Of a stretch of 64,000 nt of DNA, positions 18,399 through 48,192 are shown piece after piece. This DNA is from Candidatus Levyibacteriota bacterium. Its GTDB lineage: Bacteria; Patescibacteriota; Microgenomatia; Levybacterales; UBA12049. Positions within the stretch are counted from its first letter, which is position 1. Each line of letters opens with the position of its first letter. The translations under genes and the position numbers were made by a program. The notes beneath the pieces were generated by a model that worked only from the letters and a program-made list of their open reading frames with translations, searched no databases and had not been told where the DNA came from. The stretch is taken from the NCBI GenBank assembly GCA_016182235.1, contig JACOXT010000003.1, forward strand, positions 130,209-194,208, in the 5' to 3' direction.

Positions 18399-18967
18399 AG
18401 ACAATACAAATTGTTAAATTGCTAAATTGTTATATTGCCAAGTTAATAAAAAACAATACAACAATAAAACAATACAACAATCATAATGGCTTTACGATTG
18501 TTGAGTTGCTGATGTTTATGGGGCTTTTGTCAATAATGCTTGTTATATTGACGGGGATCTTTGTATCAGCTCTAGATGTTCAGCTTGAATCTGAAGCCAA
18601 TTCTTCTGTACAGCAAGATGGAAATTACATCCTTGCCAAATTATCGGGAGACATGCATAAGGCAACAAATATTTCAATCCCGAGTTCCTTAGGCGGATCT
18701 GCAACCAATTTTCAAGTAGTTGTTGGAGGTGTAAGCTATACGTATAATGTAAATTCGGATAACCTTGAGCTAAATGATGGGGTTTCAGCAGACGCTCTTA
18801 ATAGTTATAATTCAAGTATCTCTAATTTTTCGGCAACTCGATTGGGAAATAGCGGAAAAGTAGAAGATACGCTTAAAATTAATTTTACACTGACAAGCAA
18901 AACAAAAAAAAATACGGGTTTTGAGACAAAAGATTTTGAGACAACGCTTTCTCTTAGAAGACAATGA
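18395..18967 (+). CDS. Prepilin-type pseudopilin with an unusually long 32-aa leader
   Basis: ...YNNHNG/FTIVELLMFMGLLSIML. ATGA overlap with the upstream gene. Confidence 0.75.
   Translation: MKTIQIVKLLNCYIAKLIKNNTTIKQYNNHNGFTIVELLMFMGLLSIMLVILTGIFVSALDVQLESEANSSVQQDGNYILAKLSGDMHKATNISIPSSLGGSATNFQVVVGGVSYTYNVNSDNLELNDGVSADALNSYNSSISNFSATRLGNSGKVEDTLKINFTLTSKTKKNTGFETKDFETTLSLRRQ
18401..18482. repeat. Mirror-symmetric array of degenerate 8-bp repeats (about 4 x AAATTGNT, then about 4 x AACAATAN) inside the prepilin leader coding region
   Basis: Read directly: ttaaattg ctaaattg ttatattg ... aacaatac aacaataa aacaatac aacaatca. The arms are imperfect reverse complements. Confidence 0.6.
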
Positions 18968-19371
18968 TGCATAAATTTCAAATTTCAAATTTCAAATTTC
19001 AAATTTCAGAGGGTGGGCAGGCTTTAACTACACTTTTGATTTTTGTAATAATAGCTGTAACAATTACATCGGGAGCAATAGTAGTTCTTATCGCGAATAC
19101 CACATCGACAAGTAAAATTCAGGAAGGTTTGGCTGCGTATTACGCGGCAGAGAGCGGCGTTGAGAATGCGCTACTTCGTCTGTTAAGAGACCCGAATTAT
19201 ACAGGTGAAACTTTATCTATAGATACGTCAACTGCTGAAATTACCGTAACAGGAAGTAATCCAAAAACTGTTGTTTCAGTTGGGCAAAATGGAAACTTTA
19301 AACGCACTGTTCAAGTACAAATGAATTATAATAGTGGGTATTACACCTTTTCCAGTTGGAAAGAGATTTAA
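18964..19371 (+). CDS. PilX-N-like minor pilin / pseudopilin
   Basis: GGQALTTLLIFVIIAVTITSGAIV followed by AAYYAAESGVENALLRLL, the PilX N-terminal pattern. Confidence 0.6.
   Translation: MMHKFQISNFKFQISEGGQALTTLLIFVIIAVTITSGAIVVLIANTTSTSKIQEGLAAYYAAESGVENALLRLLRDPNYTGETLSIDTSTAEITVTGSNPKTVVSVGQNGNFKRTVQVQMNYNSGYYTFSSWKEI
18973..19007. repeat. Perfect tandem heptamer (AAATTTC) x5 in the 5' coding region of the PilX-like gene
   Basis: Read directly; encodes KFQISNFKFQIS. The unit length is not a multiple of three. Confidence 0.9.
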
Positions 19372-24627: not shown

Positions 24628-24716
24628 TCAACCTCACGTGTCTATTGCATTTATATCCACCTCGTTATATAATTATTCTTAGAAAAGTCATGATAAACCG
24701 ATTGGGGGTGTTGAGA

Positions 24717-24780
24717 ACTACATAGACAACTAATCGAAGGCATGCTTGAGATTAAGGCGACTCTATGTAGTCGCTTTTTT
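24717..24780 (+). promoter_or_regulatory. Attenuator-like structure: long-range stem competing with an intrinsic terminator between rpsJ and rplC
   Basis: actacataga (24717-24726) is complementary to tctatgtagt (24762-24771). A gcgac/gtcgc hairpin (24757-24774) uses that same segment as its loop and is followed by tttttt. Confidence 0.4.
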
Positions 24781-24802
24781 GGTGCACTTGACTTAACTTA
24801 AT

Positions 24803-27284: not shown

Positions 27285-27565
27285 GCAGAAGTTCTAAGAA
27301 AGGTCCATTCATAGATCCGAAATTACAAAAAAAAGTGATGAAGCAAAAACAAATGGGAGATAAATCTCCTATAAAGACATGGGCAAGAGCTTCACAAATT
27401 CCACCCGAGTTTGTTGGGCACACATTCGCAATTCATAATGGAAAAGTGTTTATAAGTGTGTTTATACAGGAGGCTATGGTTGGACATAGGCTTGGAGAGT
27501 TTGCGCCAACAAGAACATTTAGGAGTCATGGTAGAGTTGTTGCAAGGGAAATTTCCAAGACATAG
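27281..27565 (+). CDS. rpsS: 30S ribosomal protein S19
   Basis: [12 protein letters not shown]...[10 protein letters not shown]. Confidence 0.96.
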
Positions 27566-27573
27566 TAAAAATT

Positions 27574-27921
27574 ATGGAGATAGTTGCTAGAACAAAATCA
27601 ATTAGGATAAGCCCAAGAAAAGTAAGGTTAGTTGCGGATAGCATAAGAAATCTTACAATAAGAGAAGCTCTTAATACTCTAAGTTTGGTTCAGAAAGTAG
27701 GAGCCAGTGCTCTTTACGACACATTACAAAGTGCAGTAGGGAATGCAATAAATAATGCAAAGAAAAAAGAAAGCGACATGTTTATTAAGAGCATCGAGGT
27801 TTTCGAAGGACCTTCCCTTAAAAGATTTCATCCCTCAACGAGAGGAAGAATACATTCATACAAAAAAAAGAGCAGCCACATAAAGATAGTACTTGAAACG
27901 AAAGGAGAACATAGCGCCTAG
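27574..27921 (+). CDS. rplV: 50S ribosomal protein L22
   Basis: IRISPRKVRLVADSIR; position in the cluster. Confidence 0.95.
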   Translation: MEIVARTKSIRISPRKVRLVADSIRNLTIREALNTLSLVQKVGASALYDTLQSAVGNAINNAKKKESDMFIKSIEVFEGPSLKRFHPSTRGRIHSYKKKSSHIKIVLETKGEHSA

Positions 27922-27981
27922 CAATTAGCCTCTAGCGTTCAGTTTTAACTAGACGCTTGACGCTGATAACTAAACGCTAAA
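27912..27981. repeat. Heptamer-periodic mirror array (4 x TAGCNNN, then CGCTNNN/AACTNNN units) spanning the rplV stop and the rplV-rpsC gap
   Basis: tagcgcc tagcaat tagcctc tagcgtt cagtttt aactaga cgcttga cgctgat aactaaa cgctaaa. tagcgtt (27933-39) pairs with aacgcta (27973-79). Confidence 0.65.
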
Positions 27982-27986
27982 AAGAT

Positions 27987-28631
27987 ATGGGACAAAAAGT
28001 TAATCCAAGAATATTAAGACTGGGAACAATTTACAACTGGAGCAGTCGTTGGTTTGATGATAAAAAATACAAAGATGTTCTTCTTGAGGACTACAAACTT
28101 AGGCGTGCTCTTATGGAAAAACTCTCAAGTGCTGGAATTTCAGAGATTGAGATCGAAAGATCTATTAACAGTTTGAAATTAACCATATATGTTTCAAGGC
28201 CAGGTATGGTTATAGGGCGCGGTGGTTCGGGACTGGAAGATATGAAAGATTATATATATAAACTTCTTAATATTAAGAAAAACGCTAAAACAGCGCCAAA
28301 GATAGATATTAGAATAGAGGCTATAAAAGAACCAAATTTAGACGCATACTTAGTCGCAAAAAACATTTCTGACCAGCTGGTAAAACGGCTTCCTCATAGA
28401 AGAGTTATGGCTCAGGCAGTTGATAGAGTTATCGGAGGGGGCGCAAAAGGAATAAGAATCATTATTTCTGGAAGAGTTGGTGGCGCAGAAATAGGAAGAC
28501 GAGAAAAGTTACAGCAAGGTACGGTTCCTTTATCAACCATTAGAGAAAAGATTAATTTCGCAAGTGTTCCCGCGCTTACAAAGAAAGGCTATATAGGGGT
28601 AAAGGTTTGGATAAATAGAGGAGAGAAATAA
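27987..28631 (+). CDS. rpsC: 30S ribosomal protein S3
   Basis: [13 protein letters not shown]... Confidence 0.97.
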
Positions 28632-29875: not shown

Positions 29876-29925
29876 AAAAATATGACCCCTCAACAAGTTC
29901 AGGGTCATAGTGAGGAATTCGAACT

Positions 29926-39050: not shown

Positions 39051-39064
39051 TTAACTTATAGTTT

Positions 39065-39142
39065 TTGGTCTTTGGTCTATAGCAAATGACTAAAGACTAA
39101 TAGCAAATGACTAAAGACTAATAGCAAATGACTAAAGACTAA
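39065..39142. repeat. 2 x TTGGTCT followed by 3 perfect copies of a 21-bp unit (tagcaaatgactaaagactaa = three heptamers), ending immediately before the rpsD ATG
   Basis: Read directly: copies at 39080-39100, 39101-39121 and 39122-39142. uuggucuuugguc can pair with gacuaaagacuaa using G-U wobbles. Confidence 0.9.
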
Positions 39143-39143
39143 T

Positions 39144-39752
39144 ATGGGAAGATATACTGGGCCGAAACATAAAACAGCAAGAAGAGAAGGAATAAATATT
39201 CTAGAAAAAGAGTCGGAAAGCCTCAAAAGAAGGTTGAATGTTCCACCGGGAGGCATACAGAGAAAAAAAATAAGAAGAAGGCTTTCTGAATATGGCCAAC
39301 AGCTTCGAGAGAAACAGAAAGCTAAAGCAATATACGGGCTTTTGGAAAAACAGCTTGCAAATTTGGTTAAAGAATTGGGAAAGAAAAAGGGAGAAACAGG
39401 AGAAATGATAATAGCCTCTCTAGAAACAAGATTAGACAATATCGTTTTTCGTTTGGGTTTTGCAAAAACAAGAGCACATGCTCGCCAGCTTGTTGCTCAT
39501 AAACACGTTTTAGTTAATGACAAGAAAGTAAATATCCCATCTTACTATGTAAAGGTAAATGATGTTATTTCTTTGACTTCCCCAACGCAGAGTAATGTTC
39601 AGATAGCGCCTCTTCTCTCGGAAAAAGATCGTAAGGTTTTACCATATCTTAAAAAAGAGGGAACAGTAGGGAAGCTTTTAAGAATGCCCAAAAAAGATGA
39701 CGTCCAAGTTCTTTTTGATTTGCAGCCCATTATTGAATATTATTCAAGATAA
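39144..39752 (+). CDS. rpsD: 30S ribosomal protein S4
   Basis: MGRYTGPKHKTARREG... Confidence 0.96.
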   Translation: MGRYTGPKHKTARREGINILEKESESLKRRLNVPPGGIQRKKIRRRLSEYGQQLREKQKAKAIYGLLEKQLANLVKELGKKKGETGEMIIASLETRLDNIVFRLGFAKTRAHARQLVAHKHVLVNDKKVNIPSYYVKVNDVISLTSPTQSNVQIAPLLSEKDRKVLPYLKKEGTVGKLLRMPKKDDVQVLFDLQPIIEYYSR

Positions 39753-39768
39753 TGGTACAATGTAGCTT

Positions 39769-40692
39769 ATGGTAAATCCGATATTTAAGGTAAAAGAAGA
39801 GAAAACTGGCGAAAATGAAAGCAGATTTATTATTGAACCTTTAGACCAGGGTTTTGGTCATACTCTCGGAAATGCTTTACGAAGAGTGCTTTTAACTTCT
39901 ATAACAGGTGCTGCAGTCACTTCAGTTAAGATTCCTGGTGTAAAACATAAATTCTCAACCATTTCTGGAGTTAAAGAAAACGTTATTGATCTTTTACTTA
40001 ATATAAAAGGTTTAAATTTTAAACTTCTTGACTCAACGAATAAAGGAAAGGTTTCCTTGTCAATTAAAGGGCCGAAGAAAATAACAGCTTCAGATTTTGA
40101 CCTGCCTGAAAATATTGAGATTGTAAATAGCGACCATTATATTGCTTATATTAACGATAAAAAGGCAAAGCTTGAAATGGATTTGACAGTCGAGCAAGGC
40201 TTGGGATTTACTTCGTCTGAAGATCAAAAAACCAGCTCACTTGGCGTAATGCCGCTAGATGCAGTTTTTACCCCTGTTAGAAGAGTAAGCTACGAAGTCT
40301 CTGCTACCCGAGTTGGCAGACAGACAGATTTAGACAAACTAGTTTTGAATATTTTGACGAATGGAGTTGTCAGTCCAAGGGAGGCATTGGATGAAGCAGC
40401 TGAAATATTAAGCTCGTACTTTTTGCAGGTTTATGAACCAAAATATTCGGAACCCTCAAAATCATCAACTCAAGAGTCTATGGCTGTTGATAGTATTTCA
40501 AAACTTACAATCGACGAACTAGATTTGCCAACGAGAATTTATAACAGTCTTCGCAATGGAAGCGTTGAGACTATAGGCGATCTTTTGTCTTCAACAAAAA
40601 AGAACTTGATGTCAATGCGAAATATGGGAAACAAATCAATCATGGTTATAGAGGAAAAACTTAAACAAAGAGGGGTATCGTTAGCACAATAA
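39769..40692 (+). CDS. rpoA: DNA-directed RNA polymerase alpha subunit
   Basis: GFGHTLGNALRRVLL; C-terminal domain LDLPTRIYNSLRN. Confidence 0.96.
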   Translation: MVNPIFKVKEEKTGENESRFIIEPLDQGFGHTLGNALRRVLLTSITGAAVTSVKIPGVKHKFSTISGVKENVIDLLLNIKGLNFKLLDSTNKGKVSLSIKGPKKITASDFDLPENIEIVNSDHYIAYINDKKAKLEMDLTVEQGLGFTSSEDQKTSSLGVMPLDAVFTPVRRVSYEVSATRVGRQTDLDKLVLNILTNGVVSPREALDEAAEILSSYFLQVYEPKYSEPSKSSTQESMAVDSISKLTIDELDLPTRIYNSLRNGSVETIGDLLSSTKKNLMSMRNMGNKSIMVIEEKLKQRGVSLAQ

Positions 40693-40776
40693 TTGTGCTA
40701 AATCTCAAATCTTAAATCGCAAAGCCCAAAGCTGCAGCTTTCAGTTTTGACTTTTGACATTTGAGTTTTGAGATTT
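40681..40776. repeat. 9-bp perfect hairpin across the rpoA stop codon, then a mirror array of heptamers (5 x AAANNNN | 6 x NNNNTTT)
   Basis: ttagcacaa-taa-ttgtgctaa; then aaatctc aaatctt aaatcgc aaagccc aaagctg | cagcttt cagtttt gactttt gacattt gagtttt gagattt. Confidence 0.85.
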
Positions 40777-46095: not shown

Positions 46096-46806
46096 ATGAT
46101 CAGAGAAAGAGAATCAGGTAGCATTAATGGGGTCCACCTTGAACAGGAAAGAAGAAAAGGATTTGGAGTACTTTTGCCTATCGTTGAGATAGATCCCAGT
46201 AGAAATGGAGAAAATATAACACAGCCTAAATTGTTCACTATTATAGAGAAGAAATCTAAGCCTGAGACAGGAAAGATAGCTGGACAAATTTCATTTCCAG
46301 GCGAAACTGCAAAAATTCATAATGAACCGATGGGGGACAATATAATTGGAGGAATAGCAGAGGTTACAGATAATGATTATACAATTAGAAACAATATTTT
46401 TTTCATGCGAGATTCCTCTTTTATTAAAGAAAGAATTTTTATAAACGGCAATCCTTTTGATATGGCTATATTAATACATGTTGGTCCTTTCGATAATGCC
46501 ATCAAACCTGTGGATGTTAATGAAGTTTCACCAAACGGACCAATGACAATTCAAGAAATTAGAAGAAAAGATCCTACCAGAGATTCTAGAATTGTAAGAC
46601 GAATTGTGCATCAAGTCGCAGACTTAGAAGATTCGGAAGGTCTCATAAGAAGGGTCGTATCTGACTTTTTTAATTTTCCTACCTTGAGAATTCCTTTGCG
46701 AGCTATTTTGCCTGATGGCTTTTCCTCTATAAGGGATTTTTTTCAAGAAAGAGAAAGGACTGTAGACGTTATTGGCTCACTTTCCAAACCTTCTCTGTCT
46801 TCTTGA
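46096..46806 (+). CDS. Hypothetical protein with a degenerate Nudix-like segment
   Basis: GQISFPGETAKIHNEPMGDNIIGGIAEVT lacks the REx2EE catalytic residues. It starts 3 nt after the kinase gene. Confidence 0.45.
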   Translation: MIRERESGSINGVHLEQERRKGFGVLLPIVEIDPSRNGENITQPKLFTIIEKKSKPETGKIAGQISFPGETAKIHNEPMGDNIIGGIAEVTDNDYTIRNNIFFMRDSSFIKERIFINGNPFDMAILIHVGPFDNAIKPVDVNEVSPNGPMTIQEIRRKDPTRDSRIVRRIVHQVADLEDSEGLIRRVVSDFFNFPTLRIPLRAILPDGFSSIRDFFQERERTVDVIGSLSKPSLSS

Positions 46807-47475
46807 GTATTCTGCAATAGCGTTTTCTATATCTTCGTCATTAAGATCTGGAAAGTGTTTCTCAAGAAAAAAATACTCCGCATATGCTGCTTGCCAGATC
46901 ATAAGGCCTGATGTTCGCATCTCTCCACTTGTTCTTATGATTAAATCCGGATCAGGATGAGGTTGATTAGCAGTATCTAAAAATTGGCTAAAGTTCTCTA
47001 TGTTAATACTTAATACTTTATACTTTATACTTAATACTTTCTTTATTGCCCTTATTACTTCATCGCGTCCTCCATAATCGAGCGCAATATTTAAGACATA
47101 TTTGTCAAATGATTTTGTTTTTTCCTCTGAATTTTGGATTTTTTTAAGTAAACCTTTTGGGATTCTGTCTTTTCTTCCAAGATGAATAATTCTTATTTTT
47201 TCCTTCATTGCCTCCTTTAGATTTTTGTCTATGAATATTTCGTACATCTTCATAAGGTAATTCACTTCTTCTTTACTTCTGTCCCAATTTTCAGTTGAGA
47301 ATGCCCACATTGTGAGAGTATTAACGCCAAGGGATCGAATTTTTCTCCCGATTTTTATTGCCACATCAAATCCTCGTCTATGTCCTTCAAGACTTGGAAG
47401 TCTGTGTTCTTTTGCCCACCTTCTGTTTCCATCAGGAGTAATTGCTATATGATTAGGGATATTAAGATTAGCCAT
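46777..47475 (-). CDS. uppS: Isoprenyl transferase (undecaprenyl diphosphate synthase family)
   Basis: HIAITPDGNRRWAK, DLIIRTSGEMRTSGLMIWQAAYAE. Confidence 0.92.
   Translation of the reverse strand: MANLNIPNHIAITPDGNRRWAKEHRLPSLEGHRRGFDVAIKIGRKIRSLGVNTLTMWAFSTENWDRSKEEVNYLMKMYEIFIDKNLKEAMKEKIRIIHLGRKDRIPKGLLKKIQNSEEKTKSFDKYVLNIALDYGGRDEVIRAIKKVLSIKYKVLSINIENFSQFLDTANQPHPDPDLIIRTSGEMRTSGLMIWQAAYAEYFFLEKHFPDLNDEDIENAIAEYSRRQRRFGK
47003..47037. repeat. Five tandem heptamers (ttaatac ttaatac tttatac tttatac ttaatac) inside the uppS coding sequence
   Basis: Read directly. On the minus strand it encodes KVLSIKYKVLSI. Confidence 0.8.
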
Positions 47476-47532
47476 TTATTTGCATAAGTATACCATATTG
47501 TATTTTTGTAGAAATTGTGCAATAATCTAAAA

Positions 47533-48192
47533 ATGGCAAGTAGAAAAACCTCAAGAGAGAAATCAGATACATCAGTGCTGCCTATAAATACGAAATCTTC
47601 AGGATTTGGAAGAGTTAAAAACTCAAGGATCTTTTATATTTTTATAATTTTAGTTATTGCAGGAATATTGTTTTATTTCAAAGGATTTTTTATTGCAGCC
47701 TTAGTAAATGGTCAACCGATTTCAAGGCTTGCGATAATTGAGGAACTTGAGAGAAGAGATGGAAAGAACGCCATGACCGCCCTTGTAAATCAGGCTCTTA
47801 TTATGCAGGAGGCGAAGAAAAAAAATATAGAAGTTAATCAAGAAGAAATTAATGCGGCATCTAAAGAAATTGAGGATAGTCTAAAAAAGCAAGGACAAAA
47901 TTTGGATTCCGCGTTAACCGCGCAAGGGATGACAAGAAAAGATTTTGAGGATCAACTTAAAATAAGAAAATTGGTTGAGAAGTTGTTGGCAAATGATATA
48001 AAAGTTACAGATAAAGAGATTAATGGTTATATAGACCAAAATAAAGATCTAATTCCAAAGGACCTAAAAGCTGAAGAAGTGACAGCAAGTGCACGACAAC
48101 AGTTAGAACAACAAAAATTGTCTGTCAAATCTCAGGAATGGTTGGCAAGTCTTGAGAAAAACGCGAAAATCAACTACTTCGTAAATTACTAA
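47533..48192 (+). CDS. Membrane-anchored SurA-N-like chaperone domain protein (no PPIase domain seen)
   Basis: N-terminal TM, then VNGQPISRLAIIEELERRDG...; ATG at 47533 preferred over the TTG at 47515. Confidence 0.6.
   Translation: MASRKTSREKSDTSVLPINTKSSGFGRVKNSRIFYIFIILVIAGILFYFKGFFIAALVNGQPISRLAIIEELERRDGKNAMTALVNQALIMQEAKKKNIEVNQEEINAASKEIEDSLKKQGQNLDSALTAQGMTRKDFEDQLKIRKLVEKLLANDIKVTDKEINGYIDQNKDLIPKDLKAEEVTASARQQLEQQKLSVKSQEWLASLEKNAKINYFVNY

Follow-up and report, generated by a model that had tools for sequence, protein, structure and literature searches.

Short repeats lying between bacterial genes have been described as repetitive extragenic palindromic (REP) sequences and their hairpin-forming doublets, the REPINs, as transposable elements of the miniature inverted-repeat type (MITEs), as heptanucleotide repeats and as mycobacterial interspersed repetitive units (MIRUs). 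Here these systems are compared with a heptad-built palindrome of 68 nt (27912-27979) found between the ribosomal protein genes rplV (L22) and rpsC (S3) in a 64,000-nt stretch of a Candidatus Levybacteria chromosome (Candidate Phyla Radiation, CPR, or Patescibacteria), hereafter the window, which carries the S10-spc-alpha ribosomal protein block. We consider it probable that this element is a copy of a dispersed, non-coding, ~68-nt palindromic repeat of Levybacteria and related CPR bacteria, inserted at the rplV/rpsC junction and most likely mobile in the manner of REPINs or MITEs.

With REPINs and REP sequences (PMC3116915, PMC3337134, PMC3733652) the element shares its short length (~70-110 nt for the known elements), its dispersed, extragenic and multi-copy occurrence, two inverted halves that give a long imperfect hairpin around a variable spacer or loop, the lack of a target-site duplication, and copies that persist at orthologous sites yet differ between relatives. 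Unlike REP palindromes with their unpaired GTAG/CGTC head (PMC3733652), its arms are runs of degenerate heptads; CGTC does occur, but internally (AGCGTC) and not as an unpaired head. Further differences from REPINs are that no REP-associated tyrosine transposase (RAYT) is present among the frequent Pfam families of the flanking open reading frames (ORFs), which come from incomplete genomes, that the copies lie mainly near gene starts and inside operons, not downstream of genes, and that the CPR host genome is AT-rich and ~1 Mb in size. Correia/NEMIS, RUP and ERIC are operon-co-transcribed MITEs of bacteria (reviews PMC10969869, PMC3184786). The MIRU-type repeats of mycobacteria resemble the element in lying between operon genes and in providing the stop and start signals of the adjoining cistrons, or overlapping with them, such that expression continues. 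MIRUs differ from it in being 40-100-bp direct tandem units with small ORFs, neither hairpins nor heptad-built. MITEs such as the Correia/NEMIS elements of Neisseria, RUP and ERIC are small, non-autonomous, palindromic and intergenic, are transcribed into mRNA as hairpins in either orientation and show presence/absence polymorphism, as does the element. They possess defined terminal inverted repeats together with a target-site duplication (TA in Correia and RUP) and a parent insertion sequence; for the element, no duplication was detected, a parent insertion sequence is not known, and the heptad periodicity runs through its full length.

Heptanucleotide repeats comprise the long simple sequence repeats (LSSR) of Mrazek 2007, the short tandemly repeated repetitive (STRR) sequences of cyanobacteria and the TAACTGA repeats of Beggiatoaceae, for which a post-transcriptional regulator has been proposed (PMC4679880), while the GGGAATC repeats of Xanthomonas include inverted pairs (PMC4692102). 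They share with the element the 7-nt unit, an intergenic position often a few nt upstream of start codons (TAACTGA also in ribosomal protein operons), wide differences among relatives and, here and there, inverted pairs that can fold into stem-loops. However, a single heptamer is repeated directly and almost perfectly in them, its copy number being set by slippage, whereas the units here are degenerate, follow a fixed order and have mirrored partners in every case, giving a hairpin, and it is the complete ~68-nt unit that recurs. Contiguous 7-bp units, direct and inverted, are read by omega (ParB) of pSM19035, a ribbon-helix-helix protein for which at least four units are needed (PMC9499535), a number reached by the four to five contiguous heptads of each arm. 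The omega arrays occur at a small number of plasmid sites, located upstream of promoters, and have a known partner, in contrast to more than 100 dispersed chromosomal copies with a central loop and no known partner. TIGR-Tas arrays were set aside, their unit being ~36 nt with spacers against 7 nt here. We therefore place the element among the small dispersed palindromic repeats, but not as a member of the REPIN, MITE or STRR families.

The insert between rplV and rpsC

The initial annotation described ten heptamers at 27912-27981, four TAGC units followed by units with the reverse-complement core, and the sequence indeed reads exactly as claimed (Table 1). Self-identity of this stretch at lag 7 is 0.556 (0.48 at lag 14 and 0.47 at lag 21; 0.61 at lag 7 inside the left arm alone), far above that of dinucleotide-preserving shuffles (0.248 +/- 0.059), none of 5000 of which reached the observed value even with their best lag between 3 and 15. 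The motif TAGCNNNTAGC occurs three times in the 64 kb, all in the array, which is weak evidence on its own given at least three occurrences in 10 of 100 shuffles, and Tandem Repeats Finder (TRF, score >=30) calls no tandem array at 27912-27981. An independent assembly, Logan SRR12113430 (L081; L-numbers are labels of the compared sequences), is 100% identical over 461 nt spanning rpsS-rplV-spacer-rpsC including the array, so that an assembly artefact of the window is excluded.

The proposed mirror relation holds as well, as evidenced by arms 27933-44 and 27968-79 being 92% complementary and by the predicted fold of 27912-27979, one imperfect 68-nt hairpin whose stem is interrupted roughly every 7 bp by a mismatch or a small internal loop. 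Its energy is -26.6 kcal/mol (z -3.24), and none of 200 shuffles was as stable. The hairpin is retained when folded in its 241-nt context; the minus strand folds at -32.5 kcal/mol (z -4.73), and DNA parameters give -11.7 kcal/mol (z -2.2). The specific pairing suggested earlier, of tagcgtt at 27933-39 with 27973-79, is correct as complementarity but is not the register of the minimum-energy fold, in which 27934-39 pairs with 27952-57; several registers are possible because the heptad units repeat. No Rfam family was found in the whole window at gathering thresholds, only chance-level matches being obtained around the element, and no tRNA or tmRNA is present in the window.

The main comparison set consisted of 80 Levybacteria metagenome-assembled genomes (MAGs), whose S3 sequences are 64-90% identical to that of the window. 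In line with the earlier statement that L22 and S3 genes are normally nearly contiguous, the distance from rplV to rpsC is -17 to +7 nt in 58 of the 80, the two genes abutting or overlapping, and the other 22 have a spacer of 21-107 nt; the gap in the window is 65 nt. In the most frequent arrangement the genes overlap by 17 nt (...AAAGGAGnnnnnnATGGGACAAAAAGTTAA) and the rpsC Shine-Dalgarno sequence lies inside the rplV end, and the ancestral L22 end, KGETHGTKS before the stop, overlapping ATGGGACAAAAAGTTAA, is seen in L006, L008, L010, L011 and L014. Alignment of the window with L008 and others revealed a clean ~73-nt indel between AAAGGAG (27902-08) and the ATG. Judged from this alignment, the spacer is an insertion between the old rpsC Shine-Dalgarno sequence and its ATG, which together with the significant hairpin bears out a structured insert at a normally closed junction. 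Nor is the spacer conserved as ordinary sequence in relatives: their spacers at this junction are not homologous to that of the window, and most are period-7 mirror arrays with other cores. The closest relatives, L001, L002 and L009, have different heptad families there, indicating turnover.

The insertion accounts for the present end of L22, which has lost its rpsC-overlapping C-terminus and closes with codons and a TAG of the element. The last three codons of rplV are CAT AGC GCC, element-derived from the final T of CAT onward, and the stop, TAG at 27919-21, is the second TAGC unit. TAG triplets at 27912, 27919 and 27926 close all three forward frames, and further TAG, TGA and TAA in the right arm again cover all frames. 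The element ends 7 nt before the rpsC AUG. The old Shine-Dalgarno sequence lies 78 nt from the rpsC ATG in the linear sequence; with the hairpin formed, the path consists of ~3 nt, the helix end and 7 nt, about 11 single-stranded nt. At the rplV 3' end of L002 and L009, translation runs through the left arm (caaatgtcaaatgtcaaatctcaaatc) of a heptad array and gives L22 a low-complexity C-terminal tail, ending in KSQMSNVKSQIK or NQKSNIKNQK; such arrays can therefore extend coding regions.

Table 1 Positions of the element, its parts and the adjoining genes in the window
Feature	Position	Strand	Basis
Complete copy of dispersed palindromic repeat ('TAGCGTN / NACGCTA' family)	27912..27979	+	profile match, fold
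Left arm TAGCGCC TAGCAAT TAGCCTC TAGCGTT CAGTTTT	27912..27946	+	sequence
Left-arm heptamers tagcgcc, tagcaat, tagcctc, tagcgtt, cagtttt	27912, 27919, 27926, 27933, 27940		
Right arm AACTAGA CGCTTGA CGCTGAT AACTAAA CGCTAAA (reverse-complement heptads)	27947..27981	+	sequence
Right-arm heptamers aactaga, cgcttga, cgctgat, aactaaa, cgctaaa	27947, 27954, 27961, 27968, 27975		
AAAGGAG, ancestral rpsC Shine-Dalgarno sequence within rplV 3' end	27902..27908	+	alignment with L008 (acgaaaggagaaactcATGGGAC)
A-rich unpaired tail AAAAGAT, hairpin base to rpsC ATG	27980..27986	+	sequence, fold
rplV (L22)	27574..27921	+	ORF list
rpsC (S3), directly downstream of element	27987..28631	+	ORF list
rpsS stop TAG and 8-nt gap (TAGTAAAAATT)	27563..27573	+	stop-codon comparison with relatives

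A dispersed palindromic repeat family

Sequence comparison places the window element in a dispersed family with an invariant (C)TAG core in the left arm and CTA(G) in the right. In ribosomal protein operons, the family was found at rpsS-rplV in L003, L009, L038, L040, L052, L062 and L065 and at rplE-rpsN in L016, L019 and L037, all of these copies keeping the same order of variant units as the window. Scanning of a metagenome collection with a 24-nt degenerate right-arm motif yielded 107 stretches in 100 unique contexts. The family consensus is AGCGTCTAGCAACTAGCGTTCAGCGTTCAGTT-loop-AACTAGACGCTAGACGCTGATAACTAAACGCT, from which the right arm of the window copy departs at a single position. An nhmmer profile built from 50 metagenome copies, with the window left out, matched the window at 27912-27979 with E = 1.2e-16 (60.5 bits on the plus strand and 48.8 bits on the minus strand), and the best pairwise match to the window copy, L166:1354-1424 at an infA/rpmJ junction, is 91.5% identical over 71 nt. 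No family match was obtained in phage, plasmid or viral collections. A literature search for such elements in CPR/Patescibacteria gave nothing specific, which is weak evidence of novelty.

The copies are flanked by unrelated housekeeping genes, such as trxB/trxA, nusG/rplK (NusG/L11), tmk, infA (IF-1), ssb and the S19 gene, and several contigs hold two or three copies within 1-8 kb, with up to three per 9-14 kb stretch. Twenty-two copies lie between two forward genes and 19 between two reverse genes, showing no bias to transcription, and none lies between convergent genes, a marginal result (0 seen against ~3 expected). A gene start is found within 40 nt of one end in 59 of 76 copies, mostly at 4-10 nt, and tails of 4-10 nt like the AAAAGAT of the window precede the start codons at most other copies. 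The median length is 68 nt with a variable loop of 2-20 nt. Each arm consists of four to five degenerate heptads sharing about 4 of 7 bases, the cores are exactly 7 nt apart in both arms, and an alignment of 42 copies shows no variation in the AG of any (C)TAG core; the unit number varies, L003 being one unit short and L154 having extra units. Terminal inverted repeats are present (ends AGCGT...ACGCT), the whole element being an imperfect palindrome, and the arms folded alone reach only -1 to -6 kcal/mol, without a REP-like stem. T precedes the left end in 35 of 50 copies, and the base after the right end is unbiased. At ribosomal protein junctions, empty sites read ACN-TA-AAAAT-ATG against ACN-TA-[GCGT...ACGC]-TA-AAAAAT-ATG in filled ones. 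The TA target-site duplication suggested by these junction copies fails in the 50 metagenome copies and was rejected.

These data modify one aspect of the initial annotation, in which the structure was regarded as a feature of the rplV-rpsC gap. The insert is there, but it is not specific to this gap, and the occurrence of its family at many unrelated junctions in both orientations argues against a dedicated L22/S3 regulatory structure. As a side observation, the right arm of the family copy at L038:2547-2659 encloses another G+C-rich palindrome of unrelated sequence (CCACGTCAAACGTGGCAGTCGCGTTTGACCCG); the resulting spacer measures 117 nt and has a fold z of -8.

Heptad arrays across the lineage and the window

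At the ribosomal protein junctions examined, the median gap is 1-4 nt everywhere except rpsS-rplV (12 nt), and a spacer of 25-400 nt occurs in 3-35% of genomes at any given junction. Autocorrelation of 128 inserted spacers (34-200 nt) gave 7 as the best lag in 76, and in 58 of the 65 with a significant signal; in an unbiased set of 80 loci plus the window, the period is a multiple of 7 in 115 of 250 tandem arrays (46%). The array families are unrelated in sequence and include CTAATTA/TTAGAAA, NNNCAAA/TTTGNNN, TTGGAAA, CCTAAGT/ACTTAGG and ATGGTTC/GAACCAT. At least five of such families share one plan, in which four to five degenerate 7-nt units, a loop and mirrored units extend from the stop codon to a few nt before the next start, and some end in a conserved CGACTGAAAGGAG tail that is their own Shine-Dalgarno sequence. 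Near-identical spacers are present at different junctions of different genomes, for example rplB-rpsS of L053 and rplE-rpsN of L030.

Several spacers in the relatives are of composite or different build. The 197-nt rpsC-rplP spacer of L023 contains a G+C-rich segment of ~110 nt that has an A-rich heptad arm on one side and, on the other, a heptad arm of TTGGAWA units with a GAAAGGAG tail, and this segment looks like an insertion within an array. At rpsS-rplV, L001, L002, L004, L006 and L010 carry a different, non-heptad palindromic element, TGTCATCCTGAACTTGTTTCAGGATC...AATTCAGGATGACA, of 64-126 nt, with extra nested sequence in L002 and L006. Many MAG records with Levybacteria-like ribosomal protein operons (S3 65-85% identical), among them L002, L006, L009 and TPA_asm entries, are titled 'uncultured Gammaproteobacteria bacterium', a mismatch between title and operon which points to an apparent labelling problem of these assemblies.

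Further period-7 arrays were identified in the window at 39064-39144, 40700-40776 and 47003-47039, together with a period-8 mirror array at 18408-18481. The earlier remark that the rplV-rpsC array follows the same construction principle as those near 39065 and 40700 is supported by the heptad-phased mirror design that they share. The array of the rpsK-rpsD gap (39064-39144) consists of two TTTGGTC units and then three perfect 21-nt (3 x 7) units, ATAGCAAATGACTAAAGACTA, in which GACTAAA is a complement-type partner of TTTGGTC; it ends 2 nt before the rpsD ATG, scores 132 in TRF with 100% identical units, and has no homologue among the loci compared. The rpoA-rplQ gap (40684-40776), which folds at -35 kcal/mol, contains a small perfect hairpin (ttagcacaataattgtgctaa) and then a long heptad-phased hairpin with NNNCAAA mirrored by TTTGNNN, the TTTTGACTTTTGA arm of which has partial matches in L110, L133, L100, L012, L031 and L032. 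The period-8 array (AAATTGTT x4 / AACAATAC x4) and a perfect AAATTTC x5 array at 18973-19008 occupy the 5' ends of two ORFs that resemble type IV pilins (motifs GFTIVELL and GQALTTLL), where either they are read in frame in putative leader peptides or the true starts lie downstream. TTAATAC x5.3 (47003-47039, 93% matches, no mirror arm) occupies the junction of ORFs 46777..47475(-) and 47515..48192(+). The rpsJ-rplC gap (24628-24802, 175 nt) and the rplN-rplX gap (29876-29925, 50 nt) are unusually long for this operon. At the rpsS-rplV junction of the relatives, a short gap goes with TAA in 38 cases against 2, and heptad arrays are accompanied by TAG (13 of 39 long gaps). Because TAG otherwise accompanies arrays there, it is speculated that the window junction, with its TAG and short gap, may be the scar of a lost family copy.

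Origin and accommodation of the element

The dispersal of the family, its near-identical copies at unrelated sites and the presence/absence differences among relatives argue for mobility. The element would be non-autonomous, of the REPIN or MITE kind, and would have been moved or copied as a hairpin. Its tolerance in an essential operon may be due to three properties acting together. Stops in all three frames would end an upstream ORF within a few codons, as for rplV at the second TAG; folding on the polycistronic mRNA would remove ~68 nt and keep the rplV stop and the old Shine-Dalgarno sequence near the rpsC AUG; and an unstructured A-rich tail would be left before the AUG. In phage T4 genes 38 and 25, the ribosome-binding sites are split and a stem-loop brings the Shine-Dalgarno sequence and AUG together. 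The predicted geometry of the present copy would permit a comparable bridging, which we put forward tentatively, as a somewhat doubtful suggestion for this copy only. Since most other copies lack an upstream Shine-Dalgarno sequence, bridging could be no more than a local accommodation and would not be the family's function. The 7-nt period is a lineage-wide property of several sequence-unrelated families, and it probably reflects a heptamer bias of replication slippage combined with copying between the arms, or else a heptad-reading protein.

Several observations weigh against a mobile repeat of this kind. No target-site duplication was detected, 2-nt flank repeats in 3 of 50 copies being at chance level, and in 121 ORFs flanking the copies, which come from contigs and not from complete genomes, the 25 commonest Pfam families are all housekeeping ones, with neither a transposase nor a RAYT among them. 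The 64 kb of the window hold a single family copy, with no others found, and near-identical strains provided no filled/empty pair, the only same-species contig being identical. Classical REPINs and MITEs have no heptad substructure, and the ideas of Shine-Dalgarno bridging and translational coupling derive from the predicted geometry. Furthermore, compensatory covariation was not measurable in the aligned copies: RNAalifold on 10 and on 42 copies returned only invariant pairs with a weak and shifted consensus, and a pair table revealed that the cores are conserved, that each heptad has one C.A mismatch and one U.G pair, and that variation in the left arm is uncompensated. This test is uninformative because the search motif fixed the right arm and the paired cores are invariant, and it therefore does not establish RNA-level selection on the hairpin.

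A heptanucleotide simple-sequence array of LSSR or STRR type, grown in situ by slippage at the stop codon and later mirrored by template switching with no mobility, would account for the dominance of period 7 in all arrays, for the differences in unit number between copies, and for small, apparently nascent arrays directly on stop codons, such as TAGAAAATAGAAAGTAGAAGA in L030 and another in L032. Heptamer tandem repeats are over-represented in many bacteria, and slippage has been proposed as their origin (Mrazek 2007, as summarised in PMC4679880; PMC4692102). However, dozens of unrelated loci carry the variant units in one and the same order (AGCGTC-TAGCAAC-TAGCGTT-CAGCGTT-CAGTT ...), with ~90% identity, which excludes independent slippage as the source of the series, and units with only ~4 of 7 bases in common are unlike fresh slippage products, making growth in place quite improbable. 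Invariant CTAG-type cores exactly 7 nt apart in both arms would also suit an operator- or centromere-like array of protein-binding heptads, the dispersed copies forming a regulon just upstream of start codons. Indeed, omega binds at least four contiguous heptads in mixed orientation (PMC9499535), TAACTGA heptamers also lie near start codons and in ribosomal protein operons (PMC4679880), and most family copies end 4-10 nt from a start codon, with none between convergent genes. The omega precedent for reading 7-bp units therefore keeps a protein reader under consideration. Start-codon proximity is expected anyway with junctions of 1-4 nt, and the absence from convergent junctions is only marginal. 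The patchy presence and absence, even in close relatives and at essential genes, speaks against a regulon, as do several unrelated heptad sequences at the same junction in different genomes. A ribbon-helix-helix or other heptad-binding candidate was not evident among the flanking ORFs, in which no systematic search was made. On balance such an array is improbable.

REP-like hairpins stabilise upstream mRNA segments, and a stable hairpin exactly between two cistrons could likewise suggest a cis-regulatory RNA dedicated to rplV/rpsC of the S10 operon, as an autoregulatory operator, processing site or stabiliser. The family, however, is absent at rplV-rpsC in 80 of 80 relatives (58 without a spacer and 22 with other sequences), and the same element precedes unrelated genes in both orientations and has no Rfam match. 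The comparative data have thus largely refuted this reading, which we regard as very improbable. Equally, a G+C-containing hairpin in an AT-rich spacer, with TTGACG ... TAAAAA in the window copy, might be taken for an intrinsic terminator, an attenuator or an internal promoter splitting the operon. No U-tract follows the stem on either strand, the tail being AAAAAGAU, no promoter- or terminator-like site was called near the element in 27500-28300, and TTGACG is specific to the window, the family consensus having TAGACG; splitting of the operon in this way is extremely improbable.

Beyond the preferred reading of a mobile repeat copy, the heptad-phased mirror arrays could form a class of their own, spread across the lineage, of intercistronic CPR elements that propagate themselves, although we consider this rather unlikely. 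If true, a shared mechanism specific for heptads would be expected to generate, copy or read the arrays, with a heptad-reading protein or a process of slippage plus hairpin template switching as candidates, and the arrays may then be portable intercistronic modules that provide all-frame stops, a stop-start hairpin and, in some cases, their own Shine-Dalgarno tail.

Repeated invasion of the most essential operons by hairpin repeats is unexpected in the ~1 Mb, tightly packed genomes of CPR/Patescibacteria, and it shows that even a reduced genome can retain small repeats of a selfish or semi-domesticated kind. The elements alter gene ends, L22 losing its rpsC overlap and gaining three codons and arrays being translated in L002 and L009, and they displace Shine-Dalgarno sequences. 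Such repeats can also break or mis-join metagenome assemblies in the ribosomal protein marker block used for CPR phylogeny. The strict 7-nt substructure in unrelated families bears on the old, unresolved excess of heptamer repeats (Mrazek 2007; STRR; TAACTGA), for which this lineage offers a system separating slippage bias from protein recognition.

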